Shown here: positions 33,596-60,037 of the stretch, one piece after another | Position numbering within the stretch: position 1 is the stretch's first letter | Layout: the number at the start of each line of letters is the position of its first letter | Source: Candidatus Multivoradales bacterium | GTDB lineage: Bacteria; Acidobacteriota; Thermoanaerobaculia; Multivoradales; JAHEKO01 | Length of the DNA stretch: 64,000 bases | Assembly: GCA_965223155.1 (NCBI GenBank) | Contig: CBDCVR010000015.1 | Span: forward strand, 288,001 to 352,000 | Reading direction: 5' to 3' | Position numbers and translations under genes: made by a program | The notes under the pieces: generated by a model | Databases searched by the model: none | Seen by the model: the letters and a program-made list of their open reading frames with translations, nothing else | What the model was told of the DNA's origin: nothing

Positions 33596-33675
33596 CCTTT
33601 CCTTTCCGCGTGTGATGGAATTCAGTGGTTCGGCCGATGATTTGGGAAAATCGGTCGACCGGCCCGTCGTTTCGC

Positions 33676-36698: not shown

Positions 36699-36727
36699 GG
36701 CCCGCCAAGAATACCGCTGGAGACACC

Positions 36728-38020: not shown

Positions 38021-38051
38021 GGCCGCAAGCGCCAGCCGGTATACTTGCCGG

Positions 38052-43640: not shown

Positions 43641-44966
43641 ATGGCGCCTCCGACTCGCCTCCAGCTACTCGACTTGATCGAGTCACGGACCGCCACCGTT
43701 GGGGTCGTCGGCCTGGGCTACGTCGGCCTGCCGTTGGCCCTGGCCTTCGGAGAAGCCGGATTCGGGGTGCTCGGCTTCGACGTGGACGAGGCCAAGGTGG
43801 CGAGTCTCAACGGCGGACGAAGCTACCTCCTCCACTTCCCATCCGAGAGGATCGGCAGGCTGCGTGAATCCGAACGGCTCGAGGCCACCGCCAACTTCGA
43901 CCGGCTTTCCGAACCCGACGCCATTATCGTGTGCGTTCCGACCCCGCTCGACGAAGGCGGAGAACCGGATCTCGGCTACGTCCGGGCCACGACCGAGGCC
44001 ATCGCACCGTGCCTTCGACCCGGTCAGCTCGTCGTGCTCGAGTCAACGACCTACCCCGGCACGACTGAAGAGATTCTGAAGCCACAGCTCGACGCTTCCG
44101 GCCTCGAATGCGGGACCGACTATTTTCTGGCCTACTCCCCGGAGCGGGAAGACCCCGGCAACCCCGACTTCGGCATGGCCACGATCCCCAAGGTCGTCGG
44201 CGGCGCCGACGCCGAGTCGCTGGAGACGGCCCTGGCGCTCTACGGAAGCGTCGTCCGTACCACGGTTCCCGTGTCGAGCACTCGGGTGGCCGAAGCCTCG
44301 AAGCTCACCGAGAACATCTTTCGCGCCGTCAACATCGCCTTGGTCAACGAGCTCAAGATGATCTTCGACAGCATGGAAATCGACGTCAACGAGGTTCTGG
44401 ACGCGGCGTCGACCAAGCCCTTCGGGTTCATGCGCTTCACCCCCGGGCCAGGCTGGGGCGGACACTGCATCCCCGTCGATCCCTTCTACCTGGCCTGGAA
44501 GGCCGAGCGCAGCGGGAACCAGGCCCGTTTTATTCGACTTGCCGGCGAGATCAACCGCGAGGTTCCCGAGTTCGTTCTCGGCAAGCTGGGGTCCGCCCTC
44601 GAAGCTCGCGGGCGGGAGCTCGCCGGCGCCCGCGTTCTCATCGTCGGCCTAGCCTACAAGAAGGACGTGGCCGACCCGCGCGAGAGTCCGGCCTTCGAGA
44701 TCTTGAGCCGGCTCGAAGAGCTCGGCGCCGAGGTCTCGTACCACGATCCCTACATCCCCGAACTGCCCGCGATGCGCAGCTGGCCCGCGCTGGCGCCGAG
44801 GACCTCCGTCGATCTGACGCCGGAGGTCCTCACGGCGGCCGACGCGGCCATCCTGGTCACCGACCATTCTTGCCTCGACTACGAGCTCATTGGCGAACAC
44901 GCCCGACTCATCGTGGACACTCGGGGCACCTTCGACTCCACCAACACCCGGGTCGTCAAGGCCTAG
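43641..44966 (+). CDS. UDP-N-acetylhexosamine 6-dehydrogenase (WbpA/WecC family)
   Basis: GLGYVGLP, CVPTP, ESTTYPG, SPEREDPG, KLTENIFR, GGHCIPVDP, D.RESP. Confidence 0.93.
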   Translation: MAPPTRLQLLDLIESRTATVGVVGLGYVGLPLALAFGEAGFGVLGFDVDEAKVASLNGGRSYLLHFPSERIGRLRESERLEATANFDRLSEPDAIIVCVPTPLDEGGEPDLGYVRATTEAIAPCLRPGQLVVLESTTYPGTTEEILKPQLDASGLECGTDYFLAYSPEREDPGNPDFGMATIPKVVGGADAESLETALALYGSVVRTTVPVSSTRVAEASKLTENIFRAVNIALVNELKMIFDSMEIDVNEVLDAASTKPFGFMRFTPGPGWGGHCIPVDPFYLAWKAERSGNQARFIRLAGEINREVPEFVLGKLGSALEARGRELAGARVLIVGLAYKKDVADPRESPAFEILSRLEELGAEVSYHDPYIPELPAMRSWPALAPRTSVDLTPEVLTAADAAILVTDHSCLDYELIGEHARLIVDTRGTFDSTNTRVVKA

Positions 44967-44974
44967 ACGCTCCG

Positions 44975-45943
44975 ATGCGGATCCTGGTTTCGACCTCGAG
45001 TTTCGGAAAGGTGGGTCCCGAGCCCCTGGAGCGCCTGCGCGCCTTCGCCTCCGAGGTCCGGCTCAACCCGCACGGCCGAACGCTGACCGAAGACGAGATC
45101 ACAGGGCTCCTGCAAGGAATCGATGGACTAGTGGCCGGCGTCGAGCCCCTGACCCGCGACGTTCTCGCCGGAGCCGCCGGCCTCAAGGTGATCTCGCGCT
45201 GCGGCGTCGGACTCGACCGCGTCGACACAGAGGCCGCCGAAGAGCTCGGGATCGCCGTCCGGAACACCCCGGACGCGCCCACCCAGGCGGTGGCCGAGCT
45301 CGCGCTGGCGGGACTGCTCTCGGTCCTCCGGCGCGTGGCGAGCGCGGATCGAGCGGTCCGATCCGGGCTTTGGACCAAGACCATGGGGGCCTGCCTCGCC
45401 GGCAAGACGGTCGGCATCATCGGATTCGGACGCGTCGGCCGCCGCTTCGCGGGACTCCTGGCCCCGTTCTCGGTTCGCATCCTGGTCTACGATCCCCTGC
45501 AACTCGAGAGAGCCCAGCTCGAAACACCGTCCGAGCCGGCGCTCGGGCCGGCGTCCGGATCGGCCTCCGAGCCCGAGTACCAAGCGGCCGAGCTCGACCA
45601 TCTCCTGGCCGAGGCCGACGTCGTCAGCCTTCACGCCGCGCTCACCGACGAGACCCGAGATCTGCTCGATGCCGGAGCCTTCGGCCGGATGCGGCCGGGC
45701 GCAGTACTCGTCAACACGGCTCGGGGGGAGCTTGTGGATGAGGCCGCGTTGGTCGAGAATCTGGAAGCAGGCCGGATTGGCGGAGCCTACCTGGACGTCT
45801 TTCGAGAAGAACCCTACCGGGGTCTTCTCGGGACGTTCGACAACGTCGTCCTGACGCCCCACGTCGGCTCCTATGCGCGCGAAGCCCGGCTGGCGATGGA
45901 GCTCGAAGCCGTCAACAACTTGATCGGAGCGTTTGGTGCCTGA
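44975..45943 (+). CDS. D-isomer 2-hydroxyacid dehydrogenase (SerA-like, no ACT domain)
   Basis: SRCGVGLD, GIIGFGRVG, VNTARG, LDVF.EEP, TPHVGS. Confidence 0.9.
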   Translation: MRILVSTSSFGKVGPEPLERLRAFASEVRLNPHGRTLTEDEITGLLQGIDGLVAGVEPLTRDVLAGAAGLKVISRCGVGLDRVDTEAAEELGIAVRNTPDAPTQAVAELALAGLLSVLRRVASADRAVRSGLWTKTMGACLAGKTVGIIGFGRVGRRFAGLLAPFSVRILVYDPLQLERAQLETPSEPALGPASGSASEPEYQAAELDHLLAEADVVSLHAALTDETRDLLDAGAFGRMRPGAVLVNTARGELVDEAALVENLEAGRIGGAYLDVFREEPYRGLLGTFDNVVLTPHVGSYAREARLAMELEAVNNLIGAFGA

Positions 45944-46853
45944 AACTACGACCCCTGGAAGGCGCGCTCTGGTCACGGGCGGGTCTGGTTTTCTCGGCAG
46001 CTTCATCGCCGACGAGCTCAGCCGACGCGGCCTCGAGGTCAGAATCTTCGACCGCCGCGAGTCGAAGTGGCTCCAACCCGGCCAGGAGATGGTTCTGGGA
46101 GACATCGCCGATGCCGACGCCCTGGCCGCTGCCGCGGACGGATGCGGCGCGGTCTTCCACCTGGCGGCGCTGGCCGATCTCGACACCGCCCACGGCGCCG
46201 CCAGAGAGGCGGCCGAGCTCAACATCCTGGGCACGATCAACGCTCTGGAAGCCGCACGCCGGGCCGGAGCGACGAGGTTTCTCCTGGCCAGCACGGTCTA
46301 CGTGTACAGCCGGGCCGGCGGCTTCTACCGCTGCAGCAAGCAGTCGGCCGAGGCCTTCGCTGAGGAGTTCGGCAAGCAGTACGAGCTGCCGTTCACGGTC
46401 CTGCGCTACGGCAGCCTGTACGGGCAGCGCTCGGACGACAGCAACGGCGTCTTCCGGTTGTTGCGCCAAGCGATTCGCAAAGGTTCGATCTCGGTGCCCG
46501 GCACCCCGGACGACACCCGGGAATACGTCCACGTGGAGGACGCGGCGCGGCTCAGCGTAGACGCTCTAGAGCCCGAGTTCGCCGGCGAACACCTGGTCAT
46601 CACCGGGCACCATCCGACCCGGCTGCGCGATCTTTTCGTGATGTTCTCGGAGATCCTGGGCCGCGAGATCGAGGTGCGCTACGAGGACAGTGCCGGCGAC
46701 CGCCACACCGCTCACTACCGGATGACTCCCTACGCCTACACCCCGCGAGCCGGGCGCAAGCTCACCGCTCGGCACTACGTGGACATGGGGCAGGGCCTGC
46801 TGCAGCTCATTCACGACCTCGAAGCGAACGCCGAGTCGCCGTCTTCCAAATGA
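45936..46853 (+). CDS. NAD-dependent epimerase/dehydratase (extended SDR)
   Basis: TGGSGFLG, HLAA, YRCSK, RYGSLYG. Confidence 0.9.
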   Translation: MPETTTPGRRALVTGGSGFLGSFIADELSRRGLEVRIFDRRESKWLQPGQEMVLGDIADADALAAAADGCGAVFHLAALADLDTAHGAAREAAELNILGTINALEAARRAGATRFLLASTVYVYSRAGGFYRCSKQSAEAFAEEFGKQYELPFTVLRYGSLYGQRSDDSNGVFRLLRQAIRKGSISVPGTPDDTREYVHVEDAARLSVDALEPEFAGEHLVITGHHPTRLRDLFVMFSEILGREIEVRYEDSAGDRHTAHYRMTPYAYTPRAGRKLTARHYVDMGQGLLQLIHDLEANAESPSSK

Positions 46854-47575
46854 ACGCCGCCATCATCACCGCCCGCGCCGGTTCGAAGTCGATCCAGGAC
46901 AAGAACGTCCATCCCGTAGGCGGGCGGCCCCTGGTGGCCTACCCGGCTCGGGCCGCGCTCGAAGCCGCCTCGGTCGACAAGACGTTCGTGTCCACCGACG
47001 GCGAGTCGATCGCCGAAGCCTGTTCCGAGCTGGGTGTCGAGGTCATCTGGCGTCCCGACGAGTTCGGCGGCGACCACGTCAACCATGGAGACGTGATCCG
47101 GCACGCGGTCGAATGGGTGGACGCCGGCTACGAAGGGTTGGCGAACGTCGTCCTCTTGCTCGGCAACACGGTGATGATCGATGGCGAGATCCTCGATCGC
47201 TGCCTCGGGGAGCTGGCTGCCGACAGCTCGCTCGACTCGGTCATGACCGTCTGGGAAGCGGCCGACGATCACCCGCTGCGGGCGCTCGAGATCCACGATG
47301 GACTCCTGCGGCCGTACGGAGACCCGGACCGAAACGTCTCGACCGAGCGCCAGTCCTATGCCAAGGCCTACTATTACGACCAGGGCGTATGGGCCTTCCG
47401 CAAGGAGTGCGTGCGCGAGCGCTCCGGTCCCAACCCCTGGTGGTGGATGGGCAAGCGCTCGAAGCCAATCGTGCGCGAATGGGTCACCGGCCGGGACGTT
47501 CACGGAGCGCTCGATCTCGAGATCGCCGAGTGGTGGCTGGGGCGGCGAGTCGAGCAGGCCACCGAAGGCTCGTGA
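46850..47575 (+). CDS. Acylneuraminate/ulosonate cytidylyltransferase (NeuA/KdsB family)
   Basis: AIITARAGSKSIQDKN, VSTD, C-terminal DVH...D. Confidence 0.88.
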   Translation: MNAAIITARAGSKSIQDKNVHPVGGRPLVAYPARAALEAASVDKTFVSTDGESIAEACSELGVEVIWRPDEFGGDHVNHGDVIRHAVEWVDAGYEGLANVVLLLGNTVMIDGEILDRCLGELAADSSLDSVMTVWEAADDHPLRALEIHDGLLRPYGDPDRNVSTERQSYAKAYYYDQGVWAFRKECVRERSGPNPWWWMGKRSKPIVREWVTGRDVHGALDLEIAEWWLGRRVEQATEGS

Positions 47576-48231
47576 CCTACCGCCTACCGCTGGCGAGTTT
47601 CGACGCCATCATCTTCGACTTCGATGGCGTCATCCTGGAATCCGGAGCCATCAAGACCCAGGCTTTCCTGGACCTCTTCAGCGAACACGACGAGCACCGG
47701 GATTCGATCCTGGCGCACCATCTTCAGAATCTGGGGGTCTCCCGATTCGAGAAGTTCGCGTGGATCTATCGCGAACTGCTCCGGGAACCCCTGCCGTCAG
47801 AACTCCGCGCCGAGCTCGGTCGGCGCTACTCGCGCCTGGTCTTCGACCGGATGCTGGCCTGTCCAATGGTACCCGGCGCCGGCGAGCTCCTGGATCGTCT
47901 CGGCGGCCGGCTGCCCTGCTTTGTCGCCTCGGCCACGCCCCACGAAGAGCTTGTCGCAATCATCGAGACCCGAGGATTGGCCGACGCCTTCGAAGCCGTC
48001 TTCGGCTCGCCACCCGGGAAGAACGAGCTCGTCTCCACAATCGTCCGGACGCGCGACTTCGCCCCCGACCGGGTGCTGATGATCGGCGACGGCGTCACAG
48101 ACCTCGAAGCCGCCACCGCTGCCGGCTGCAGGTTTCTTGCCCGTTTCGACCAAGCCGCGCCTCGACAATCCTGGCCGCCCGAGACCCTCTGTGTCGATGA
48201 CCTGCGCCAGATCGAGGTCATCGCGTGCTAG
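47572..48231 (+). CDS. HAD-family phosphatase
   Basis: FDFDGV, VASAT, K, MIGDGVTD. Confidence 0.9.
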   Translation: MTYRLPLASFDAIIFDFDGVILESGAIKTQAFLDLFSEHDEHRDSILAHHLQNLGVSRFEKFAWIYRELLREPLPSELRAELGRRYSRLVFDRMLACPMVPGAGELLDRLGGRLPCFVASATPHEELVAIIETRGLADAFEAVFGSPPGKNELVSTIVRTRDFAPDRVLMIGDGVTDLEAATAAGCRFLARFDQAAPRQSWPPETLCVDDLRQIEVIAC

Positions 48232-49367
48232 ACACGGCGAAACGCCTCTGGACCGGCTGCGCGCTTCTACTTCTCAACACTCTGGTCGTCTTCGCGCTCG
48301 CCAACCTTGTGGCGGCCGCCATCCTGTCGTGGCTGCCGCCCGCGGACATACCGCCCGCGCTTTCCGACGAAGAGATCGCGCAGGTCTATCCCGGCAAGAG
48401 CTCCGAAGACGTCCGGCAGCTTCTGGAAGAAACCTGGGGACGACGCTACGCCTATGAGACCTTCACCGAGTTCAAGGAAGGGACGACGAGCGGACGCTTC
48501 GTCACCGTTGAGGACACGGGCTTTCGCCGCTCGCCTGAAGACTACCCTTGGCCCCCGGCACCCGACGCGGACAACATTTTCGTCTTTGGCGGCTCGACCG
48601 CATTCGGGTACGGCGTAGGCGACGACGAGACCATTCCCGTCGCTCTCGATCGGGCCTTGAGGAACGAGGGTTGCTCCGAGACTCGGGTCTACAACCTGGC
48701 GCGCTCGAACTACTACAGCTCTCAAGAACGAGCTCTTTTCGAACGCTTGCTCGTCGACGGGATCGCGCCGCGGCTCGCACTTTTCCTCGACGGTCTCAAC
48801 GAAGCCGGCCATCCCGATGGCGGCGCCAAGTACTCGAACCGCCTCAGCTACTTGATGGCCGAGACACACTCGCAGACCGCCCGGCGCGCCCTCAAGTGGC
48901 TGCCGCTTGGCCGCCTGATCTCACGATTGCGGCCAGATCCCGATCCAGCATCCCCGATCGCCGCGCCGGCAGGTACCGCGCAAACCGTCATCGCTCGCTG
49001 GGCGGCCAACCGGCGGCTGATCGAGGCGGCCGCCGATGCCCATGGAACCGAAGTCCTCTTCGTCTGGCAGCCGGTGCCGACCTACCGCTACGACCTGCGT
49101 TTCCATCTCTTCGCCGAACGTCTTGCGGGCAAGAACTGGGACCTCTTGGATGCAATCTACGGCCAGATGCGCGACCGTCACGGAGACGGCGGCATCGGAG
49201 AGCCCTCGGAGGACTCCGACCGGTTCCTGTGGCTCGCAGACCTGCAAACCGACCGCAACGAACCCCTGTACGTCGATAGCGTCCACTACACGGCGGCGTT
49301 CTCCGAGACGATCGCGCGAGCTCTCGCCAAGCACATCGGGGCCACCCTGTGCGATTCGGCACCCTGA
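48225..49367 (+). CDS. Membrane-anchored SGNH/GDSL hydrolase-fold protein
   Basis: N-term TM; FGGST, DGLNE, DSVH. Confidence 0.8.
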   Translation: MLDTAKRLWTGCALLLLNTLVVFALANLVAAAILSWLPPADIPPALSDEEIAQVYPGKSSEDVRQLLEETWGRRYAYETFTEFKEGTTSGRFVTVEDTGFRRSPEDYPWPPAPDADNIFVFGGSTAFGYGVGDDETIPVALDRALRNEGCSETRVYNLARSNYYSSQERALFERLLVDGIAPRLALFLDGLNEAGHPDGGAKYSNRLSYLMAETHSQTARRALKWLPLGRLISRLRPDPDPASPIAAPAGTAQTVIARWAANRRLIEAAADAHGTEVLFVWQPVPTYRYDLRFHLFAERLAGKNWDLLDAIYGQMRDRHGDGGIGEPSEDSDRFLWLADLQTDRNEPLYVDSVHYTAAFSETIARALAKHIGATLCDSAP

Positions 49368-49479
49368 CTCTCGGCAACCCGCCCAAGAAGCCTGCCTTGG
49401 GAACCACGGGGTTGTTCGCTATTCTCTCGGAGCCGCCCGCGTCCGTAGGCCCCCTCGTCTCGACCTCCACAAGAATCCG

Positions 49480-50598
49480 ATGAGCGAAACCATTCTCGTA
49501 ACCGGTGGTTGCGGCTTCATCGGCTCCCACCTCGTCGATGACCTCATCGCGGCCGGCAGGAACGTCCGCGTCATCGACAACCTGACCGCCCAGGTGCACC
49601 CCGGCGGCCGGAAACCCGAATATCTCAATCCAGGAGCCGAGTACGTCGTCGCCGACATCACTGACGATGGTGTCCTGGAAACGACTCTGGCCGGGGTCGA
49701 CGTCCTCGTGCATTTCGCGGCCGCCGTGGGCGTCGGGCAGTCCATGTACGAGCCCGAACACTATGTCCATACGAACTCCGTTGGCACGGCGAAACTGTGG
49801 CAAGCGGTGCTCGGACTCGAAAAGAAACCCCGCAAGGTGCTGGTCGCGTCATCGATGAGCATCTACGGCGAGGGCCGCTACGTCTGCAAGAACTGCGGCC
49901 CGGCCCGCGGGCACCGAAGCGAAGAAGCCCTTCGAGAGGGCCACTGGGAGCCCACGTGCGCAACCTGCCAAGGCCCGCTCGAAGCCTTGCCGACAGACGA
50001 GGCTCATCATCAAGATCCGACGTCGATCTACGCTCTCTCCAAGTACGACCAAGAACGAATGTCTCTGGCGCTTGGAGCTGCCTATTCGATTCCTACCGTT
50101 GCCTTGAGGTTTTTCAATGTGTACGGCACCCGCCAGTCACTGTCGAACCCCTATACCGGCGTTGGAGCCATCTTCTCCTCGCGGATTCGGTCGGACAGCC
50201 CGCCGACCGTCTACGAAGACGGAATGCAGCAGCGCGACTTCGTCCACGTTCGGGACATTGTTCAGGCCTGCCGACTCGTCATGGATTCCGATGGCGCCGA
50301 CGGCCGCGCGTTCAACGTCGGTAGCGGCCGCGCCATTACCATTCGGGACCTGGCCAAGCTCCTGATCGACCTTCACGGCAAGACAGGTTCGCTCCAGCCC
50401 GAGATCACAGGACGGTTCCGAACCGGAGACATTCGGCACTGCTTCGCCGACATCTCCAAGATTCGAGAACTGGGCTACGAGCCCAAGGTGTCCCTCGAAT
50501 CAGGCTTGCGCGAGCTCGAAGACTGGAGTCAGACGGCGCCTACCGACGACAAGTTCGACGCGGCCCAAGGCGAGCTTCATCGGCGCGGTCTCGCGTAG
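49480..50598 (+). CDS. NAD-dependent epimerase with CxxC...CxxC insert (WbiB-like SDR)
   Basis: TGGCGFIG, GVGQSMY, SSMSIYGEG, CKNC...CATC, YALSK, RFFNVYG..Q.LSNPYTG. Confidence 0.9.
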   Translation: MSETILVTGGCGFIGSHLVDDLIAAGRNVRVIDNLTAQVHPGGRKPEYLNPGAEYVVADITDDGVLETTLAGVDVLVHFAAAVGVGQSMYEPEHYVHTNSVGTAKLWQAVLGLEKKPRKVLVASSMSIYGEGRYVCKNCGPARGHRSEEALREGHWEPTCATCQGPLEALPTDEAHHQDPTSIYALSKYDQERMSLALGAAYSIPTVALRFFNVYGTRQSLSNPYTGVGAIFSSRIRSDSPPTVYEDGMQQRDFVHVRDIVQACRLVMDSDGADGRAFNVGSGRAITIRDLAKLLIDLHGKTGSLQPEITGRFRTGDIRHCFADISKIRELGYEPKVSLESGLRELEDWSQTAPTDDKFDAAQGELHRRGLA

Positions 50599-50604
50599 AC
50601 GCCG

Positions 50605-51654
50605 ATGCGCGTCGTCTTCGTCCCCAAAGGTGGTCCCGACGTTCCAAGTAGCAAGTACCGTTGCCACTTCTTCGCCGAGGCCCTCGGATCCTGCGGCATA
50701 GCCACGCGCATCTTGGCTCCTCCGGCCCGCCTCGGCTGGCGGCCACGCGCGGGCGCTCTCGCCGACCTACGCAGGCTCCGAGCGGATCTCCGGACGGTGG
50801 TCGAGGGGGACGTTCTGTATCTTCAGCGTCCAACCCAGAATCACTGGTTCGTCGCCATGCTCGCGGCCTTCAAACGGCGCCGACCCAGCGTCCCGGTGGT
50901 GTTCGACTTTTGCGACCCGATTTGGCTTCACTCGCCGTTCAAGACGCGAACGCTCGCTCGGCTCGCGGACCTGGTTGTCACTAGTTGCGAGGATCTGGCC
51001 GAATGGGCGCAAGACCACGGCGACCGCGTTGTCGTAGTGCCCAATAGCCTGCCGTCGCTGCCGCTACCGCGTCCAGAGCCACAATCGATCTCCAGCCTGC
51101 CGACGCTCGGTTGGGTGGGCAACGCAACGGTCCATCGTCAGAATCTGACGCTTCTCGCCGAGGCTCTCGACGAGCTTCGTCGGCCCGCGCGGTTTTGCCT
51201 TGTCGGGAGCCGGGGCGCCGAGGACCTGGTCGACCGATTCGCCACGATTCCCAATCTCGAGGTGCAAAACCACCCCTGGCTTGGGCCCGACGAGGTCGCG
51301 ACGATTCTCGAGCGAGTCGACATCGCACTCTTGCCGGTCCGGGACGTTCCATGGAATCGAAAGCTCCTGACCAAGTTGATCGAATACCTGGGAGCCGGCC
51401 TCCCGGTGATCGCGAGCCCGGTGGGAGACAATCGGCGGGCGATCCACCATGGCGTCAACGGGATGCTCGCCGCGACGGCCAGCGAATGGCGTGACTGCTT
51501 GGGTCGGCTGATCGACGAGCCCGAGCTCCGAGCGTCCCTTGGCCGAGCAGCCAGGGAAACGGCCGCGGGCCGATACGGCTTGGAAGTCAACGGGCCCAAG
51601 CTTGCTCGGGCGCTACGCGAACTGGTGTCGGTTTCCAACCTCCAGGTCGGCTGA
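50605..51654 (+). CDS. Glycosyltransferase family 4
   Basis: LGWVG, KLIEYLGAGLPVIASPVG. Confidence 0.88.
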   Translation: MRVVFVPKGGPDVPSSKYRCHFFAEALGSCGIATRILAPPARLGWRPRAGALADLRRLRADLRTVVEGDVLYLQRPTQNHWFVAMLAAFKRRRPSVPVVFDFCDPIWLHSPFKTRTLARLADLVVTSCEDLAEWAQDHGDRVVVVPNSLPSLPLPRPEPQSISSLPTLGWVGNATVHRQNLTLLAEALDELRRPARFCLVGSRGAEDLVDRFATIPNLEVQNHPWLGPDEVATILERVDIALLPVRDVPWNRKLLTKLIEYLGAGLPVIASPVGDNRRAIHHGVNGMLAATASEWRDCLGRLIDEPELRASLGRAARETAAGRYGLEVNGPKLARALRELVSVSNLQVG

Positions 51655-51662
51655 ACTCGACG

Positions 51663-52793
51663 ATGACGCGAATCCTGTACCTGTCGCAATCCTACGTACC
51701 CTCACGTCGAGCGAACTCGGTTCAAGTCATGCAGATGTGCGCTGCCATCTCCGACTTGGGACACGAGGTCGAATTGCTCACGAAGGGAGCCGATCAGGGC
51801 CTTGACGCCGGCACGGATGTCCATGGGTTCTACGGGGTTCGGCCATCTTTCCCCGTCGTGTCTCGTCCGCGACCTCGATTCCCGGGTGGAGGCACCGCGT
51901 ATGCTCTTGCGCTGGCGCAATCGCTCAATGGCAGGAAGAAGGCGATCGACCTGGCCTACAGCCGTGACCCCGTAGGCGTCTGGCTCGCCCCCCGGCTGGG
52001 GGTCCCCACCGTCGCCGAGGTGCATGCCATGCCCAAGCCCGGCTGGCAGGCAAGCTGGTTTCGGTCGATGCTCCGCCAAGACAATCTGGTGCGGGTTGTC
52101 GCCATCACCGAGGCGCTTCGCCGCGACCTCGAAGATGGGTTCGGCCAACTCGGAGACCGCATTCTGGTGGCCCCGGACGCCGTGCGCGACGATTTCTGTC
52201 CGGACTTCGGCGCCCAGAGACGCGAGCGGGCCGCCGGCGCCGGCACGCCTCGGGTGGGCTATGTCGGCAACCTCTATTCCGGCCGGGGCATCGAGCTCAT
52301 CGCCGAGCTGGCGTCTTCGATGCCCGATGTCGCCTTTCACGTCGTCGGCGGCAGCGATCAGGCGGTGGCCCGCTTTCGGGCCAGGTACCCACGGCCGAAT
52401 CTGACCTTCGCAGGCTTCGTCCCGCCCGCCCATTTGGCACGGGAGTTCGCCAAGCTGGACGTGCTCCTGATGCCCCATCAGTATCGCGTCGGGACGGGCA
52501 AGGAACGAAGCGACATCGCCCGCTGGACCTCGCCGATGAAGATGTTCGAGTACATGGCCACCGGACTGCCGATCGTCGCGTCTGATCTGCCAGTGCTTGG
52601 AGAGGTTCTACGCCACGGAGATAACGCTTTGCTGGTCCCGCCGGACGCCGCCGCCGCCTGGCAGGACACGATCCGCCGGGTCCTGACCGACCGGGATCTC
52701 GCCACGCGGCTAGGCGCCACGGCGCGAAGCGAGGTCCTGGCCAACTACACCTGGCATCGCCGAGCCGAACGGGTCCTGCATGGCCTCGTCTGA
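51663..52793 (+). CDS. Glycosyltransferase family 4
   Basis: YVGNLYSGRG, SPMKMFEYMATGLPIVASDLP. Confidence 0.9.
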   Translation: MTRILYLSQSYVPSRRANSVQVMQMCAAISDLGHEVELLTKGADQGLDAGTDVHGFYGVRPSFPVVSRPRPRFPGGGTAYALALAQSLNGRKKAIDLAYSRDPVGVWLAPRLGVPTVAEVHAMPKPGWQASWFRSMLRQDNLVRVVAITEALRRDLEDGFGQLGDRILVAPDAVRDDFCPDFGAQRRERAAGAGTPRVGYVGNLYSGRGIELIAELASSMPDVAFHVVGGSDQAVARFRARYPRPNLTFAGFVPPAHLAREFAKLDVLLMPHQYRVGTGKERSDIARWTSPMKMFEYMATGLPIVASDLPVLGEVLRHGDNALLVPPDAAAAWQDTIRRVLTDRDLATRLGATARSEVLANYTWHRRAERVLHGLV

Positions 52794-53892
52794 CGCTCCC
52801 CGGAGCGTTTTCATCGTCCGGCCGGCTTTGAGCCAGGGCGGAGCGGATCGCGTAACCCTGACTCTCCTCGAACGGCTCGACCGTTCCCGCTTTCGTCCCG
52901 TCTTGGTCCTTCTTCGCCGAGATGGCGAGCTTCTCGACCTCGTTCCAGACGACGTCCCTATCCTTCGATTGCACACCTCGAGTCTAGGAACCGCTTGGCT
53001 CCCGCTGGCCCGGCTGCTGCGCGCTGAACGCCCGGAGATCATGCTGTCAACCTCAGGCGGGGCGAACGTCGCCGCCGCCCTGGCCCATCGGGCAACGCGG
53101 TCGGCCTCCCGGCTGGTCTTGTCCGAGCGCAACGTACTCTTCCGCCCACCCATGGACCTGAGACGCCGGCTCCTACTCCTGGCAAAGCGCCGGCTCTACG
53201 GGCGGGCGGATGCCGTGATCGCGGTTTCGAACCAAGTTCGGCAGGACCTTCTCGAACACCTCGATCTGGACGGTTCGAAGCTCCACGTCGTAGACAACCC
53301 CGTTGTGGATGATGCCTTTGCCGGGCGCGCCGCACAGCCCTGCGGGCATACCTGGTTTGACGAGGAAACGCCGGTCGTTCTCGCCGCCGGCCGCCTGGTT
53401 CCGGTCAAGGGCTTCGACACCCTGCTCCACGCTTTCGCCGCCGTCGCCAAGCGGCACCCAGCCCGGTTGATCCTCCTGGGCGAGGGTCCCGAGCGGGACC
53501 GTCTCGAAGCCCTCGCCGAGACGTTGGGCCTGGCCGACTCGGTTTCGATGCCGGGCTTTGCCGCCAACCCTCTGGCCTTCATGTCCCGCTGTGAGGTCTT
53601 CGTGCTAAGTTCCCGCGCGGAAGGCCTGCCGGGCGTCCTGATTCAGGCCATGGCCTGCGGCGCGGCCTCGGTTTCGACCGATTGCAAGGCGGGACCGTCC
53701 GAGATTCTCCGCCACGAAGAAACCGGTCTCCTTGTCCCCGTGGACGACTCCCACGCCCTGGCCGAAGCGATCTTGCGCTACCTGAAGGATTCCGACTACC
53801 GGCAGGCGACCGGCAAACGCGCTCGGGAATCCGTCGAGAGGTTTCATGTCGATCGGACCGTTCCTCGCTACGAGGAGATCCTCCTGGGATGA
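52780..53892 (+). CDS. Glycosyltransferase family 4 (WabH/PglH-like)
   Basis: GGADRV, GRLVPVKGF, SSRAEGLPGVLIQAMACG. Confidence 0.9.
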   Translation: MASSDAPRSVFIVRPALSQGGADRVTLTLLERLDRSRFRPVLVLLRRDGELLDLVPDDVPILRLHTSSLGTAWLPLARLLRAERPEIMLSTSGGANVAAALAHRATRSASRLVLSERNVLFRPPMDLRRRLLLLAKRRLYGRADAVIAVSNQVRQDLLEHLDLDGSKLHVVDNPVVDDAFAGRAAQPCGHTWFDEETPVVLAAGRLVPVKGFDTLLHAFAAVAKRHPARLILLGEGPERDRLEALAETLGLADSVSMPGFAANPLAFMSRCEVFVLSSRAEGLPGVLIQAMACGAASVSTDCKAGPSEILRHEETGLLVPVDDSHALAEAILRYLKDSDYRQATGKRARESVERFHVDRTVPRYEEILLG

Positions 53893-54950
53893 CCGAGCTG
53901 GCAGTCGGCCTCGCGGGTTGCGGCCATATTTCCGGAAAGCACGTCGAGGGTTGGCGACGAGCCAAAGGCTCCAAGCTGGTCGGCCTCTTCGACGTCCGCC
54001 GGCCGAGCGCCGAAACGCTGCGCGCTCGCTTCCCCGGGCTCGAGCTCACCGTCTTCGATTCCGTCGGCGAGCTGGCCGGCGAATGCGACATCCTCGACAT
54101 CTGCACCCCGCCCCAGACGCATCGCGATTTGCTCGAGCTCGCCATCAAGAACGACTGTCACATCCTGGTCGAAAAACCCGTGGTGACCTCGGTCGCGGAC
54201 TGGGATCGTCTGCTGCCGGCTCTCGAAGCCTCCGGACGCTCGCTCACCGTCGTTCATAACCTCAAGTTCTCGCGGAGCGCCGCGCGCGCCAAGCAATGGA
54301 TCGACGAGGGCCGGATCGGAGATCTGCTCAGGTTGGAATGGAGCTTCATGACCAGCCCCGCCAGCGACCGGATGCTGACCGATCCCGACCACTGGTCCCG
54401 GAGCCTTCCCGGAGGCCGTTGGTTCGAAACCCTGCCTCACAATCTCTACCTGACCCACTTCTTCGCCGGTCCCATGCGGCCGCGGTCGGCGGTGGTGCGC
54501 TCGGGCCGGCCTGAACACGCCGACGAAGCCTTGATCGTCTTGAAGAGCACGTCGTGCCTCGCTACCGTCCACTTCTCCTCAAACTGCGAGATCAACCATC
54601 GCTGGGGGACGCTCATCGGCAGCAAGGGCATCATCGACTTGGATCTTCTGGCCGACGCCGCGACTCTGCACACGGGAGCGGACTCGAAGGCGGGCCGGGC
54701 GGTGAGCCGGACTCTGACCGGCGCCCTCGGCACGCTAAGCCAGATCCTCCCCGACCGGGCCGCCTATCTGGCCGGAAAGACGACGGGCAGCTCGCCCCAC
54801 GCACGACTCATCGGCCTCCTGGACGAACATCTTGGCTCGGACGGACCGGCGCCGACACCCATCGACGAGGTCGACTACGTCATTCGCACCTGTCCCGAGA
54901 TCGGCGACCTCATCGACGGCGCGCTCGCGGCGGACCATGGCTCGCGTTGA
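53889..54950 (+). CDS. Gfo/Idh/MocA family oxidoreductase
   Basis: GCGHIS, ICTPPQTH, LVEKP. Confidence 0.88.
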   Translation: MTELAVGLAGCGHISGKHVEGWRRAKGSKLVGLFDVRRPSAETLRARFPGLELTVFDSVGELAGECDILDICTPPQTHRDLLELAIKNDCHILVEKPVVTSVADWDRLLPALEASGRSLTVVHNLKFSRSAARAKQWIDEGRIGDLLRLEWSFMTSPASDRMLTDPDHWSRSLPGGRWFETLPHNLYLTHFFAGPMRPRSAVVRSGRPEHADEALIVLKSTSCLATVHFSSNCEINHRWGTLIGSKGIIDLDLLADAATLHTGADSKAGRAVSRTLTGALGTLSQILPDRAAYLAGKTTGSSPHARLIGLLDEHLGSDGPAPTPIDEVDYVIRTCPEIGDLIDGALAADHGSR

Positions 54951-56130
54951 CTTTCTGATCGCCAACGGCGGACACCATACCGCCGCCGCGCTGCCGGTGA
55001 TCCGCGAGCTCCGGAAACGGGGCGACTGCATCTGCCGAGCGGCCTCCATCGCCGAGCTACGCGGCCTGGAGTCCCCCATCGGGCGGTTCGCCGAAGAGGG
55101 TGTGCCTCTGGTGCCGATCCTGCCGCTCAAGCTCAGGCCGTCGCCCGCCGCTGGCCGGTCGCTAGCGCTCGACGGTGCGGTGCCAGTGCGTAAGACCTTG
55201 CATCGAGCCGTTTGGCGGCTGCTCTTGCGCCCCGGTCTCGAGGACTTCTTCGATGCTGGCACCGACCTGGCCGTCTTGCCCAACGACGGCAACTTCCCCT
55301 ACGACCGGATCGCCGAGCTTCTCCATCGGCGTTCGATCCCGTTTCTGATTCTGCAAGAAGGCATTCGCTTCGACGTGCCGTACTGGACGCCCCGCGGGGG
55401 GAGCGGAGCCGCCGCATTCGCCCTGTGGGGCGAGACCAGCCGGGAATACTTTGCCGGCCGCGGCGTGCCGCCCGAGCGGCTGCACGTGACCGGGGCGCCG
55501 CGATTGGATCCGATCGTCAACCGCGACTGGACCGAAGAAGCCGCCGCGGTTCGGCACCGCCTGGGCGGCGAGATCGAGATCCTGCTCTTTCTGTCCAATC
55601 CGATCGACGACCTCGGCTACACGACCGCGACCGGCAAGGACGACTTGATCGTCGAGTTCGCGCGGGCCACTGCGCCGCGGGCCGAGGCGAATCCCCGGTT
55701 CCGCCTGGTCATCAAGCTCCACCCGAGAGAGTCCGAGGAAGCCCTCGCTCGAAGGCTCGAGCGCCTCGCTCACTACGACTCGATTGTCCTCACCACTCAC
55801 GAACCCCTTTACCCGCTCCTTGCCGCCAGCCGGGCAGCGGTAACGTTCGCCTCCACGGTCGGTCTCGAGGCCATGCTCCTGGACGTGCCGCTTGGGATCC
55901 TCGAGATTCCCGGCCATGGCTTCGTGCACGACTACGTGGCCAGCGGCGCCGCGGCCGGGATCGAGTGGGGACAAGCGCCTTCCACATCCCTGGCGGCCCT
56001 GCTGGACACGGTGGCCGGCGGTTCCTCGGCCGCTCGCGCCACCTACCTCGAGCGCAACACGGCTCATGCCGGAGGCGCGGCGGCCCGGGTGGCCGACCTG
56101 GTTCGAGATATGCTCGGCACGAAGCCGTGA
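54937..56130 (+). CDS. GT-B transferase of the Capsule_synth/TagF-like group (candidate CMP/CDP-donor transferase)
   Basis: LQEG, VTGAPRLD, IKLHPRE, ASTVGLEAMLLDVP. Confidence 0.7.
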   Translation: MARVDFLIANGGHHTAAALPVIRELRKRGDCICRAASIAELRGLESPIGRFAEEGVPLVPILPLKLRPSPAAGRSLALDGAVPVRKTLHRAVWRLLLRPGLEDFFDAGTDLAVLPNDGNFPYDRIAELLHRRSIPFLILQEGIRFDVPYWTPRGGSGAAAFALWGETSREYFAGRGVPPERLHVTGAPRLDPIVNRDWTEEAAAVRHRLGGEIEILLFLSNPIDDLGYTTATGKDDLIVEFARATAPRAEANPRFRLVIKLHPRESEEALARRLERLAHYDSIVLTTHEPLYPLLAASRAAVTFASTVGLEAMLLDVPLGILEIPGHGFVHDYVASGAAAGIEWGQAPSTSLAALLDTVAGGSSAARATYLERNTAHAGGAAARVADLVRDMLGTKP

Positions 56131-57518
56131 GTTCCATCCCGCGACCTGAGACTCTCCAAGTTCCCGGGCTGTCCCCCACACTCGCACCGCGGCCACTTCC
56201 CCGCATCTTCGCGATCGCAATCGGCCTCTGGTTCCTCTTTGCCTTCGTCACCAAGGTCAACCTGATCCCCGGGATGGTGCAGAACATCGGTCCGTTCGAA
56301 TTCCTCGGAGCGGTCATGTTCGGCGTCTTTCTCGCCTCTCCGGCGCGTAGAAGAGTCAATCCCAGACATCCCTTGATCGCAACCATGGCGATCCTTCTCG
56401 TCATGGCGGCCGCCTCCCAGGTCGTGCTGCCGCCCAACAGGGCCAAGTACGGAATGGTGCAAGTAGCCGTCTTGGCCTTCCTGCTTGCCTACTTGACGAT
56501 TTTCTCGGGCCTGACGCGGCGTCATCGTCTGCTCATGAACGCCCTGGTACCGGTCATCGTCCTCGCGGCCCTGGCCGCCGGCGCAGTGATCGTAAGCCAG
56601 GGGGTCGATGCCGGCATCGAGGAAGCCGGTATCTTCCGCGGCCGGGCCCACATGGCGACCTACATGCTGACCTCGTTCTGGCTGTGCCTGATCGGCTTTT
56701 TCTGGCCGCTCAGCCCGAGATGGGTGCGGCTGGCAGCGATTCCCGGTCTCGCCTTCGCCCTCTACTGCGTGGCCATCTCGGGCCGGCGCTCGGCCTATCT
56801 GGCTCTCTTCGCGGGTCTCGCGGCCCTGGGGGCGTCGGTGCTGGTGGCCCAGAAAGGCAAGCGCTTGCGCTGGCTGGTGGCAGCGACCGTCTCGTTCGGC
56901 GTCCTGATCGGCATGTACTCGGTGGGTTCGAATTTCTCGCGGCGAACAGCCTTTTTTCAGGCCCGCGTTCACCTGGTGGACGACCGGCTCCGATCCTTCC
57001 TGGGCACCGACGACGGTCCCGAGGTCGAAAACAGCTTTTACGCCCTGCAGCGCCAGGGTGTCCGAGCTGCTCTTCTCACCTCACCACTCATTGGCATCGG
57101 CTGGGGCGGGTTCGCAGGCTCCGAGTATTCCCCAACCGGGCACGAGATCCACAGCACGCCGCTGCGCTTCTTGGCCGAGCTCGGTGTGGTCGGTTTCGCC
57201 CTCTATCTAGCCTTCATGGGTTTCCTTCTAGCGGGCTCGGCCCGCTTGTTCTTGACCATGCGCGCTTCGCCCTATGGCAACGCCTACCTGGCGCTGGCGA
57301 TCGCCATCTGGAGCATGTCGATCAGTTACGTCTACAACCGCCACATCACGGAACGCACTTTCTGGATTTTCCTGGCGGTCTACCTGGCGATGGAAGCCTT
57401 CGCCGAGTACTGGCAGACCCTCAACCGGGCATCGCGCAACCGCGCTGGCGAAGCGCCGCGCCTGCGCTCGGTGCCGCCCACGCCGCTTGCGGACCCTGCC
57501 TTCGGCAATGCCCCTTGA
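56127..57518 (+). CDS. Wzy polymerase / O-antigen ligase family membrane protein
   Basis: About 11 TM; ISGRRSA, PLIGIGWGGF, HSTPLRFLAELG. Confidence 0.8.
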   Translation: MSSIPRPETLQVPGLSPTLAPRPLPRIFAIAIGLWFLFAFVTKVNLIPGMVQNIGPFEFLGAVMFGVFLASPARRRVNPRHPLIATMAILLVMAAASQVVLPPNRAKYGMVQVAVLAFLLAYLTIFSGLTRRHRLLMNALVPVIVLAALAAGAVIVSQGVDAGIEEAGIFRGRAHMATYMLTSFWLCLIGFFWPLSPRWVRLAAIPGLAFALYCVAISGRRSAYLALFAGLAALGASVLVAQKGKRLRWLVAATVSFGVLIGMYSVGSNFSRRTAFFQARVHLVDDRLRSFLGTDDGPEVENSFYALQRQGVRAALLTSPLIGIGWGGFAGSEYSPTGHEIHSTPLRFLAELGVVGFALYLAFMGFLLAGSARLFLTMRASPYGNAYLALAIAIWSMSISYVYNRHITERTFWIFLAVYLAMEAFAEYWQTLNRASRNRAGEAPRLRSVPPTPLADPAFGNAP

Positions 57519-58727
57519 CCCGCGGCCCGAGGATCGGGCTGCCGGTGCGAACCGGCCGCTTCTCGCCATCGCCGTGACGCATCCGATGACCGCCGACCTC
57601 CTCTTACGCGGCCAGCTCGGGTACCTTCGTCGTCAGGGATTCGCGCTCCACCTCATCTCTTCGCCGGGGGCCCAGTTGGACCGGGTCGCCGCCCGCGAGG
57701 GCGTTGAGCACACGGTCCTGCCCATGCGGCGGGACATGAGCCCGTTGGCCGATCTCATCGCCCTCGTCCGGTACCTGCGCCTCTTTCGCAAGCTTCGTCC
57801 CGACATCCTCTCCGCCGGCACCCCGAAGGCCGGCTTGCTGGCGACGCTCGGCGCGCGGCTGGCCGGCGTCGCCACCCGCATCTACACCGTCCGTGGGCTT
57901 CGTTCCGAGACCGCGCGCGGATGGCGCGCGGCGCTGCTCCGATTCGCCGAGCGGACCGCCGCGGCCTCGGCCACCCATGTCGTCTGTGTCAGCCCGAGCC
58001 TGGCTGCCGAGTACGCGAGCCGCGGCTTCGCCCCTCGAAACCGCATCCGAGTCCTGGGCTCCGGTTCCTCCAACGGAGTCGACACGGAACGTTTCTCACC
58101 ACCTGGAGCCGAGGATCGCGCGCGTGCCCGGGATCGCCTCCGGATTCCCGCCGACGCCTTGGTCGTCGGCTTCGTCGGGCGGCTGGTCCGGGACAAGGGC
58201 GTCGAGGACTTAGCCGCCGCCTTCCAGGCACTCTTCCGCGAGTACCCGGATGTCTACCTCCTCCTGGCCGGCGAGTTCGAGGACGGGGACGCCGTCTCCC
58301 GGAGGGTACGGACCGAGCTTGAAGAGCATCCGCGGGTCGCCGTCCTAGGCTTCGTCGAGGACCCCGTAGCCGCGTACCACGCGATGGATGTGCTGGTCCT
58401 GCCCTCCTCTCGCGAGGGATTCCCCAACGCCGTTCTCGAAGGCTCGGCCTGCGCTTTGCCGGTGGTCGCGTACGATGCCACCGGTAGCCGGGACGCGGTC
58501 GCTCCCGGCACCACCGGACAACTGGCGGAACTCGGGAACCCCGACGCCCTGGCCCGAGCGCTCGGCACCTACCTCGACGACCCCGCGCTCCGCGCCGCTC
58601 ACGGCCGGGCCGGCCGCAAACGGGTCCTCGATCACTTTCGAAACGAGACGGTCTGGGCCACCTGGGCCGATCTCTATCGAGAGCTCCTGGACACCTCGGA
58701 CCTCGCGACGGACCAGGTACGGACGTC

Positions 58728-58731
<4 letters not shown>
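57508..58731 (+). CDS. Glycosyltransferase family 4 (PglA/CapM-like)
   Basis: TPKAGLL, GSSNGVD, GRLVRDKG, REGFPNAVLE. Confidence 0.9.
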
Positions 58732-59419
<688 letters not shown>

Positions 59420-59423
<4 letters not shown>

Positions 59424-60037
59424 AGTCCCTCGTGTTGGGCGGAGGAGGCCACGCCAAGGTCGTGGTCAGCACGCTCCAGGCCGCCGGTACGGAGCCGGCC
59501 GCGGTCTACGACGACGACTCGACGAAGTGGGGCACGGAGCTCCTGGGCGTCCCGATCGCGGGCGCACTCGACGACGCCGCGGGCGCCGCCGGGGCAGCGA
59601 TTCTGGCTTTCGGCAACAACCGGCTGCGCCGCCGTTTCGCCGCGCGCTTCGAGCTCGACTGGACCTCGGTGATCCACCCCACGGCCTGGGTCCATTCTTC
59701 GGTGACTCTCGGGCAAGGCTCGATCGTTTGCGCCGGCGCCGTGATCCAGCCCGGCGCCCGCATCGGCGACCACGTAATCGTCAACACAGCGGCCTCGATC
59801 GACCATGATTGCCAGGTCCCGAGCTTCTGCCACGTGGCTCCGGGAGCGCGGCTGGCGGGAGGCGTCCGCCTGGGAGAAGGCTGTCTGGTCGGCATCGGAG
59901 CCGCCGTCCTGCCGGGTGTCATCGCCGGGCCATGGGCTCGGATCGGCGCCGGGGCGGCGGTCCTCGGCGACGTGCCGGCCGAAGCCACCGCCGTCGGTGT
60001 TCCGGCCCAGATCCTGGAAGCGAGTTCCGGTGGCTGA
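59420..60037 (+). CDS. Sugar N-acetyltransferase (PglD/NeuD/EpsM family)
   Basis: GGGGHAKVV, IHPTA, NTAASIDHDC, hexapeptide repeats, GVPA. Confidence 0.92.

Follow-up and report, generated by a model that had tools for sequence, protein, structure and literature searches.

A 64,000-nucleotide stretch of a Candidatus Multivoradales genome (assembly GCA_965223155.1, contig CBDCVR010000015.1, here C15, positions 288001–352000; hereafter the window) carries a probably horizontally spread cassette of four overlapping genes together with a further protein encoded from position 54937 of the window. We consider the chances roughly even that this cassette makes a cytidine monophosphate (CMP)-linked 2-ulosonic acid without an aldol synthase of the NeuB or KdsA type and adds it to a Wzy-dependent surface glycan. 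To our knowledge, the textbook CMP-activated sugars, which are 3-deoxy-D-manno-octulosonic acid (Kdo), sialic acid, legionaminic acid (Leg), pseudaminic acid (Pse) and Kdn, all derive from a synthase that condenses phosphoenolpyruvate (PEP). Genome surveys for CMP-activated sugars key on this synthase. The cassette is conserved, and judged from its genes its precursor logic appears unlike that of all known CMP-sugar pathways; the titles and abstracts of the literature searched, in which subscription journals are little covered, hold no description of the gene set. The four genes (g1 to g4) lie on the + strand at 44975–48231 and overlap by 8, 4 and 4 nt, the g2/g3 overlap being ATGA and the g3/g4 overlap GTGA. 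They encode a D-2-hydroxyacid dehydrogenase, an extended short-chain dehydrogenase/reductase (SDR), a divergent cytidylyltransferase and a haloacid dehalogenase (HAD) phosphatase, and the protein at 54937 (g11) is a candidate transferase (Table 1). The gene families, their conservation and linkage, the fold of g3 and the absence of a synthase are observations. The whole genome (4.0 Mb in 15 contigs, 98.66% complete) was available for the searches, and the G+C content of the window is 63–71%.

The cytidylyltransferase g3 passes the gathering score of PF02348 (62.4 against 22.6 bits) over profile positions 1–72 of 217 only, which is the CTP-binding N-terminus, and it falls under the cut-off of every named equivalog (PseF 89.6 against 205.7 bits; KdsB models 32–41 against 155–281). 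Its AlphaFold 2 (AF2) model (pLDDT 86) adopts the fold of NeuA and PseF including the dimerisation hairpin. The top fold matches are CMP-N-acetylneuraminate (CMP-Neu5Ac) and CMP-Pse synthetases, with template modelling (TM) scores of 0.79–0.85 at 24–26% identity (6ifd 0.79–0.83; 9ftc 0.81–0.85, root-mean-square deviation 2.4), followed by CMP-Kdn synthetase and KdsB (0.66–0.72), and the first match outside the ulosonate enzymes, IspD (1vpa), stands at rank 37 (TMq 0.68, E 1.4e-11). In a profile alignment R144, R167 and Q168 of g3, all invariant in 37 sequences, fall on K142, R165 and Q166 of the Neisseria meningitidis enzyme NmCNS, in which R165 is reported to make a salt bridge to the sugar carboxylate and K142 to position it (PMC2901514). 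Three further invariant motifs, WEAADDHPLRA, AYYYDQGVW and GPNPWWWMG, are unique to the g3 family. Taken together, sequence and model suggest that g3 works like a CMP-ulosonate synthetase that stands outside every named subfamily. It is the sole PF02348 protein of the genome besides a canonical KdsB. Database relatives number 806 at E <= 1e-10, and the best 120 of the 806 are 68–100% identical and carry generic names only; cluster names in the protein Atlas likewise say no more than cytidylyltransferase. A search for longer proteins found two. One (P0241, 491 aa), a single case, is a natural cytidylyltransferase–HAD fusion in which the HAD portion shares 48% identity with g4, and the other is a 44%-identical g3 relative behind a partial acyltransferase-3 domain.

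Profile searches of the whole genome for NeuB, KdsA, Epimerase_2 (NeuC/WecB), HpcH aldolase and PEP mutase gave no match in the window. The genome holds no NeuB, the lone PF03102 match being a weak 25-bit cross-match on a 3-deoxy-D-arabino-heptulosonate 7-phosphate (DAHP) synthase at C15:253082–253819. KdsA is present in one copy at C15:107434–108216, ~180 kb upstream of the window, with the canonical KdsB beside it (C15:104954–105571), and no PF02350 epimerase scores above cut-off anywhere in the genome. A linked HpcH aldolase can be rejected, as the three PF03328 matches are all distant, on contig C14 or ~100 kb upstream of the window, and a phosphonate pathway similar to that of CMP-aminoethylphosphonate is rejected because the genome has no PEP mutase. 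Five carrier genomes found in the scan described below were searched in the same manner: in three of them (L024, L066 and L043; completeness not stated) neither NeuB nor KdsA scores above cut-off, two of these three lack a DAHP-synthase-family candidate as well, and the remaining two have a NeuB elsewhere. An earlier note on this DNA, made from the window alone, had described the four overlapping genes with these families, had seen no NeuB, NeuC, KdsA or aldolase in the window, and had read the genes as an orphan CMP-activation module. The coordinates, overlaps and Pfam matches agree with that description, and the reading is strengthened by the lack of a genomic NeuB, the distance of KdsA and KdsB, the carriers without either synthase and the ulosonate-synthetase fold.

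A scan of species-representative genomes for g3 homologues returned 80 loci (labels of the L001 type), with g3 identities of 62–77%; across phyla, homologues of g3 are 62–80% identical. The loci come from Thermoanaerobaculia (Acidobacteriota), Chloroflexota, Bacteroidota (Roseivirga, Neolewinella, with the cultured N. aquimaris DSM 105137 as L057, and Saprospiraceae), Myxococcota, Planctomycetota, Gammaproteobacteria, a Tectomicrobia metagenome-assembled genome (MAG) and Firmicutes-like MAGs. L085, which is among the loci counted, comes from a genome flagged as unpublished, and no statement rests on it. The dehydrogenase accompanies g3 in 64 of the 80 loci, the SDR in 65 and the HAD phosphatase in 61. 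In the 40 well-flanked loci, which have at least 6 kb on either side of g3 and in which neighbours were sought within 10 kb, the survey of neighbours that the earlier note had proposed gives 36, 35 and 34, respectively, and g11 follows in 25, always with the glycosyltransferase g9. The gene arrangement is thus not due to chance, since it recurs in most of the 80 loci and in several phyla. Within the phylum of the window the g3 family occurs in just 3 of 301 genomes, the present one included, and this rarity fits a horizontally moving cassette; no relative was found on viral contigs, and no match on plasmids at 1e-20. Neighbour annotation covered nine of the 17 most widespread open reading frame (ORF) clusters by mapping to window genes and clusters 7, 8, 14 and 15 by scanning, clusters 18–29 (each in at most six loci) being outside the scan. 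Among the clusters so annotated there is no aldolase, and no linked NeuB or KdsA as a conserved neighbour within 10 kb. As no annotated conserved neighbour forms a carbon–carbon bond, the sugar skeleton would have to pre-exist. In the Roseivirga locus L046 a separate NeuB with its own fused cytidylyltransferase lies upstream of the module, and the g3 homologue there is a second, independent activation enzyme.

The proteins that accompany g3 are strongly conserved too. In g1, R250, E279 and H296, which we take to be the catalytic Arg/Glu/His set of the D-isomer-specific 2-hydroxyacid dehydrogenases, are invariant in 20 family members, and the mean column identity of g1 is 52%. Because its score against the 3-phosphoglycerate dehydrogenase (PGDH) model TIGR01327 stays below the cut-off (219.6 against 454 bits) and a full-length SerA (595 bits) is encoded on contig C13, g1 is not the serine enzyme. 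The 2-ketogluconate reductases fall within the same D-2-hydroxyacid dehydrogenase family (PDB 9m0t, 132 bits), as presumably does KguD, which reduces 2-keto-6-phosphogluconate to 6-phosphogluconate. The SDR g2 (mean column identity 64%) has invariant S119, Y131 and K135 with an unusually short spacing of 12 residues from Ser to Tyr, lacks the dehydratase signature, and could be a sugar-6-phosphate C1 dehydrogenase or an epimerase. The phosphatase g4 (mean column identity 50%) retains the four HAD motifs DxD, S/T, K and DD, with D16, D18, S120, K150, D173 and D177 invariant in 20 sequences, and among proteins of solved structure it comes closest to phosphatases of a generic or sugar-phosphate type, TM_1254 being one.

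The 397-aa protein g11 has a GT-B fold in its AF2 model (pLDDT 90.5). The HP and STVGLEA motifs pointed out in the earlier note are present (KLHPRES, ASTVGLEA): an alignment of 46 homologues shows no variation at H262 (next to which the window protein has Pro), S306, G309, L310 or E311, nor in Q140-E141-G142, which stands at the position of the D/E-D/E-G acidic motif. The nearest group is TIGR04396/BFO_1060, and KpsS/KpsC and TagF, named in that note, are less close. Aligned to a true TIGR04396 member (378 bits), the g11 family profile of 46 sequences reaches a probability of 98.5% in hhalign (E 3.9e-15, 232 columns), compared with 62% (E 7.5e-5) for a true WecB, although the sequence itself remains under the cut-offs of BFO_1060_trans (NF046086, 46.1 against 200 bits), TIGR04396 (41 against 125) and Capsule_synth (PF05159, 16.9 against 20), with a sub-threshold match to DUF6716 as well. 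Some g11 homologues carry a precomputed PF05159 label. Among the Pfam matches of window proteins, considered to E 0.01, g11 has neither PF02350 nor Glyphos_transf. According to a study of Tannerella forsythia O-glycosylation, deletion of Tanf_01245, an ~81% identical homologue of BFO_1060, removes the terminal Pse or Leg derivative of the glycan, the acceptor is ManNAcA, and the protein carries the HP and D/E-D/E-G motifs of bacterial sialyltransferases (PMC5420450). On sequence grounds g11 is a candidate transferase for the g3 product, and we read it so because the locus needs a transferase for a CMP donor, because of this kinship and because GT29-like genes replace it elsewhere. The earlier proposal of g11 as partner of the module is supported by its co-occurrence with the four genes across phyla.

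The replacement is seen in minimal operons (L018, L034 and L025) that keep only dehydrogenase, cytidylyltransferase and HAD phosphatase, g11 and the SDR being missing. Here one to three small paralogous ORFs of 219–236 aa precede the core and match the sialyl-motif region of GT29 (PF00777) at 30.6–48.6 bits against a gathering score of 23, over profile positions ~55–133 of 272 only; one of the three ORFs in L034 has no Pfam match. All 30 Atlas matches of these ORFs carry the GT29 family set. Standing beside the same core, they link to the module a further family of transferases for CMP-sugar acids that is unrelated to the first. The nearest Atlas clusters of the GT29-like genes are mostly phage-derived (Uroviricota), and a YheC/D ATP-grasp gene adjoins them in L018. 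Another variant, the Aureliella locus L064, has the order GT4-Gfo-cytidylyltransferase-dehydrogenase-HAD-g11 and lacks the SDR.

Each step of the chemistry that follows, and which sugar results, we infer from this set of genes. First, g1 would oxidise a phosphorylated aldonic acid at C2 to a 2-keto acid, the future anomeric centre; this oxidation would be unfavourable and would be pulled by the later steps, as in serine synthesis. The HAD phosphatase g4 would then strip the phosphate, so that the free keto acid could cyclise before activation, and g3 would join CMP to the anomeric hydroxyl. Finally g11, or the small GT29-like enzyme in some other genomes, would attach the sugar acid to the repeat unit as it is being built. 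The SDR g2 would either supply the phospho-aldonate by C1 oxidation of a hexose-6-phosphate or epimerise the sugar. We prefer this C2-oxidation scheme as the simplest in which every core enzyme has a function. That the product is a CMP-hex-2-ulosonic acid made by two dehydrogenations, with the SDR acting at C1 and g1 at C2, and installed by the g11/TIGR04396-like and GT29 families, is in our view somewhat unlikely. Our most specific guess for the sugar, a weakly supported one, is D-arabino-hex-2-ulosonate (2-ketogluconate type), drawn from glucose-6-phosphate via 6-phosphogluconate.

The distribution of zwf bears on the source of the phospho-aldonate. Neither zwf nor 6-phosphogluconate dehydrogenase finds a match in the present genome or in two congeners (G136, which also carries the module, and G306), and for this reason 6-phosphogluconate made by Zwf is rejected as an obligatory precursor here. 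Four further Thermoanaerobaculia carriers (L006, L010, L013 and L015) also gave no zwf match; the Thermoanaerobaculia-like lineage seems to be without the oxidative pentose-phosphate branch. Of the modules without the SDR, eight have 3 kb of flank or more, and all eight reside in zwf-positive genomes, as does L025; SDR-bearing modules (n = 48) divide into 26 in zwf-positive and 22 in zwf-negative genomes, the present one among the latter. This pattern (one-sided Fisher p = 0.013, a value which ignores relatedness and MAG incompleteness and stands for ~4–6 independent lineages) weakly fits a role of g2 in supplying the phospho-aldonate.

Several observations weigh against the proposed route. 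With no zwf or 6-phosphogluconate dehydrogenase in this genome, 6-phosphogluconate is available only if g2 makes it, and the zwf pattern could be a lineage effect, given that nine of nine Thermoanaerobaculia carriers are zwf-negative. The closest solved relatives of g2 are UDP-sugar 4-epimerases (6wjb and 6wj9, 90 bits), and C1 dehydrogenases are far weaker (uronate dehydrogenase ~38 bits, Azf 35 bits). The substrate loop of g1 reads AGTE and gives no positive sign of phosphate binding in its sequence, in contrast to the RS motif that we take to mark this loop in phosphoglycerate dehydrogenase. In g3 the Gln of the QPTSP/QGDEP motif (Q104 in NmCNS, Q98 in KdsB), which has an important part in how NeuA and KdsB bind the sugar, is absent: the aligned residue is L104, followed by invariant G105-N106-T107, so that LLLGNT stands in place of QPTSP. 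Within 10 kb, the HAD phosphatase is missing in 6 and g11 in 15 of the 40 loci. The top structural neighbours of g11, lastly, are UDP-N-acetylglucosamine (UDP-GlcNAc) 2-epimerases and NeuC (Z 25.4–26.6), ahead of transferases (Z 22–23.6), a ranking that is reversed by its sequence kinship to TIGR04396 over WecB.

Three other explanations have to be considered. It is improbable, in our estimate, that g3 makes a unit which is not a sugar, a CDP- or CMP-linked glycerate, hydroxyacid or polyol phosphate, with g1 and g4 supplying the hydroxyacid and g11 acting as a TagF/TarL-like phosphotransferase. The top families of g1 are indeed phosphoglycerate dehydrogenase (the 219.6 bits given above) and glyoxylate reductase (205 bits), those of g4 are phosphoglycolate-phosphatase-like, 3-phosphoglycerate is available in every carrier as established metabolism tells, and in structure g11 has TarL and TagF among its neighbours (Z 22.4 and 21.9), although both rank below the epimerases. 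However, the folds nearest to that of g3 all belong to CMP-ulosonate synthetases and the CDP-forming IspD type lies far lower by E-value. A phosphatase fused or adjacent to g3 argues for a dephosphorylated hydroxyl as the nucleophile. The GT29-like partners in three loci belong to glycosyl transferases for CMP-sugar acids rather than to phosphotransferases, and g11 has no Glyphos_transf match. The earlier note had left the choice between a keto-acid sugar and a hydroxyacid or polyol substituent, and the former is the better supported.

A quite improbable explanation is that g3 and its partners act on a canonical ulosonic acid whose synthesis takes place elsewhere, such as Kdo from the housekeeping KdsA or the shikimate intermediate DAHP once dephosphorylated, or on a simple derivative of it, g1 and g2 then only epimerising or oxidising. 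The genome does have KdsA and a DAHP synthase, the succession of HAD phosphatase and cytidylyltransferase follows the established KdsC/KdsB logic, and g3 keeps the carboxylate-binding Arg. On the other hand, the L024, L066 and L043 genomes described above have neither synthase above cut-off, the present genome already has a KdsB beside its KdsA, and g1 would find no obvious role on a ready 2-keto acid, although no other partner is as constant (36 of 40). Highly improbable is a coincidence of separate pathways, in which g11 is a divergent nucleotide-linked N-acetylhexosamine (or uronic acid) 2-epimerase of the WbpI/WecB/NeuC type acting with g0 and g10 on a UDP-ManNAc(3NAc)A-type sugar: the fold ranking, the lack of a genomic PF02350 protein despite a WecC/TviB-like g0, the UDP-GlcNAc 3-dehydrogenase match of g10 and the pairing of QEGIR/EAGLR, HP/HLNP and STVGLEA/SGGVQEEA in the WecB alignment speak for it, but hhalign is much stronger to TIGR04396, the locus would be left without a candidate transferase for its CMP-linked donor, g11 follows g3 across phyla (25 of 40) when g0 does so in just 11 of 40, and GT29-like genes occur where g11 is missing. 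As a canonical 2-epimerase g11 is rejected for want of a PF02350 match, the fold ranking leaving this function as a low-probability rival only.

Among known systems, the CMP-ulosonate route outlined above resembles the CMP-Kdo pathway (KdsA, KdsC and KdsB, with WaaA and KpsS/KpsC) in HAD dephosphorylation, PF02348 activation and transfer from a CMP donor, as well as in the weak Capsule_synth (KpsS/KpsC) match of g11. It differs in having no linked KdsA-type synthase, with none at all in some carriers, a 2-hydroxyacid dehydrogenase standing in its place, and in that g4 is of the C1-capped IA type and not KdsC-like (24 bits to the KdsC homologue 2p9j). The CMP-nonulosonate pathways (NeuB/NeuC/NeuA, PseF, LegF) supply the nearest folds and sequences of g3, namely NeuA and CMP-Pse synthetase, and through Tanf_01245 (BFO_1060 family) the homology of g11, which may also share HP and (D/E)-E-G-type motifs; unlike them, the present genome lacks NeuB and g3 has LGNT in place of QPTSP. 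The order of a PGDH-like dehydrogenase and a HAD phosphatase recalls SerA and SerB, where irreversible dephosphorylation could pull the oxidation in the same way, and KguD provides a natural case of the proposed C2 redox step, run in reverse; in contrast to the serine pathway, g1 is not SerA and the module has no aminotransferase. The CDP-polyol systems (TarI/TarJ/TarL, TagD/TagF) likewise combine a cytidylyltransferase with a dehydrogenase or reductase and with a GT-B enzyme bearing the HP motif, whereas g3 has the NeuA fold rather than that of IspD/TagD, the module includes a phosphatase and GT29-like partners occur in some loci.

A strongly conserved NeuA-like enzyme with non-synthase partners and transferases of its own suggests a second biosynthetic logic for CMP-activated sugars, and with it that bacteria of soil, sediment and sea probably display an acidic surface sugar not yet described. 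If the somewhat unlikely reading of a CMP-hex-2-ulosonic acid is true, the product would be a previously unknown six-carbon, non-deoxy analogue of Kdo or sialic acid, and a whole class of acidic surface sugars would have been missed in environmental bacteria of at least six phyla. The cassette would also add donors and transferases for glycoengineering, and would correct the labels of hundreds of proteins that are now called ‘N-acylneuraminate cytidylyltransferase’ or ‘hypothetical’.

The cassette resides in a surface-polysaccharide locus on the + strand that spans from ~33.6 kb to the window end (Table 1). Two membrane proteins similar to Wzy_C/O-antigen ligase are encoded, at 35229–36785 (- strand) and 56127–57518 (+ strand); the window shows no recognisable flippase of the Wzx type, and a 558-aa ORF at 33616–35292 has no Pfam match.

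Table 1. Features of the surface-polysaccharide locus in the window and of genes at other loci with a g3 homologue (positions with an L label refer to that locus)
Feature	Position	Strand	Remarks
EpsL-like outer-membrane protein, Wza, Wzc	36680–41113	+	Locus context
TPR protein			Locus context; after Wza/Wzc and before g0 in the gene list
g0, nucleotide-sugar 6-dehydrogenase, UDP-N-acetylhexosamine (HexNAc) dehydrogenase-like	43641–44966	+	Accessory neighbour, not core
g1, D-2-hydroxyacid dehydrogenase	44975–45943	+	PF02826 (2-Hacid_dh_C) 176 bits, PF00389 (2-Hacid_dh) 84 bits
g2, extended SDR, epimerase/dehydrogenase type	45936–46853	+	Epimerase PF01370 137 bits
g3, divergent NeuA/PseF-like cytidylyltransferase	46850–47575	+	Module core; CTP_transf_3 PF02348 62.4 bits
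g4, HAD-IA (C1-cap) phosphatase	47572–48231	+	HAD_2 (56.1 bits) and Hydrolase match
g5, transmembrane and SGNH/GDSL-like	48225–49367	+	Context, not core
g6, second extended SDR with Cys-rich insert	49480–50598	+	Context, not core
g7, g8, GT4 glycosyltransferases	50605–52793	+	Context, not core
g9, GT4 glycosyltransferase	52780–53892	+	Glycos_transf_1 136.6 bits
g10, Gfo/Idh/MocA oxidoreductase	53889–54950	+	PF01408 78.7 bits; between g9 and g11
g11, GT-B protein with QEG, HP and STVGLE motifs	54937–56130	+	397 aa
Wzy-like protein	56127–57518	+	Locus context
GT4	57586–58731	+	Locus context
Small phosphoglycosyl transferase	58728–59423	+	Bacillosamine-type initiation set
NeuD/PglD-type acetyltransferase	59420–60037	+	Bacillosamine-type initiation set
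LegC/PglE-like aminotransferase	59805–61178	+	Bacillosamine-type initiation set
NTP_transf_5, ‘uncharacterised nucleotidyltransferase’	61175–62239	+	75 bits; between aminotransferase and PglF-like dehydratase
PglF-like dehydratase	62389 to window end	+	Bacillosamine-type initiation set
Tandem GT29-like genes	L018:6874–9023, L034:6582–8896, L025:8239–8949		
Small protein-kinase-fold kinase	L018:11517–12371, L034:11488–12285, L025:11248–12195		After the minimal core

Immediately upstream of the core, g0 matches TIGR03026 (408 bits, cut-off 189.8) and the N-terminal, central and C-terminal UDPG_MGDP_dh domains of Pfam, with the WecC and TviB models below their cut-offs, and a homologue is found in 24 of the 80 loci (11 of the 40 well-flanked). 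It is WecC/TviB-like, yet no PF02350 UDP-GlcNAc 2-epimerase scores above cut-off genome-wide; either its substrate is UDP-GlcNAc or another protein performs the epimerisation, with g11 as a structural look-alike. Ahead of g11 lie g9, which travels with it and has homologues in 28 of the 40 well-flanked loci and in 25 of the 25 that have g11, and g10, with homologues in 14 of 40, the order GT4-Gfo-g11 being repeated in L046, L024 and L064. The top NCBIfam match of g10 is UDP-GlcNAc 3-dehydrogenase at 62.9 bits, far under the cut-off of 450.

Homologues of g5, g6 and g7 occur in only 2–5 of the 80 loci. The first of these overlaps g4 by 7 nt, begins with an N-terminal membrane helix and has an SGNH/GDSL-like domain under the Pfam cut-off (29.1 against 32.9 bits); it is kept only in close relatives (five loci), and might act as an esterase or a transferase for O-acyl groups of the glycan. 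The SDR g6, with homologues of 58–59% identity in just two loci, bears within its Rossmann domain an insert of ~40 residues (CxxC...CxxC) with a weak match to the rubredoxin-like part of PknG, and this insert may form a zinc ribbon.

Some carriers depart from the common arrangement. In the Roseivirga locus (L046:747–2777 and L046:5788–6828) a protein of 676 aa fuses a PF02348 cytidylyltransferase to a class-III aminotransferase; upstream of the module, it has a NeuB, a WbqC-like protein and a sulfotransferase nearby, and this looks like a separate and unusual nonulosonate pathway. One unclassified bacterial MAG has three g3-type copies on three contigs (L035, L036 and L041), at least one of them beside a divergent, more distant dehydrogenase (38% identity) and with neither SDR nor HAD in its vicinity. 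In Anaerolineales/Chloroflexia loci (L043:11052–13327, L058 and L066) HAD and g11 are both missing and Wzm/Wzt ABC-transporter genes adjoin (Wzt_C 25.2 bits in L043, cut-off 30.4), and the sugar might there be a chain terminator that is recognised by Wzt.

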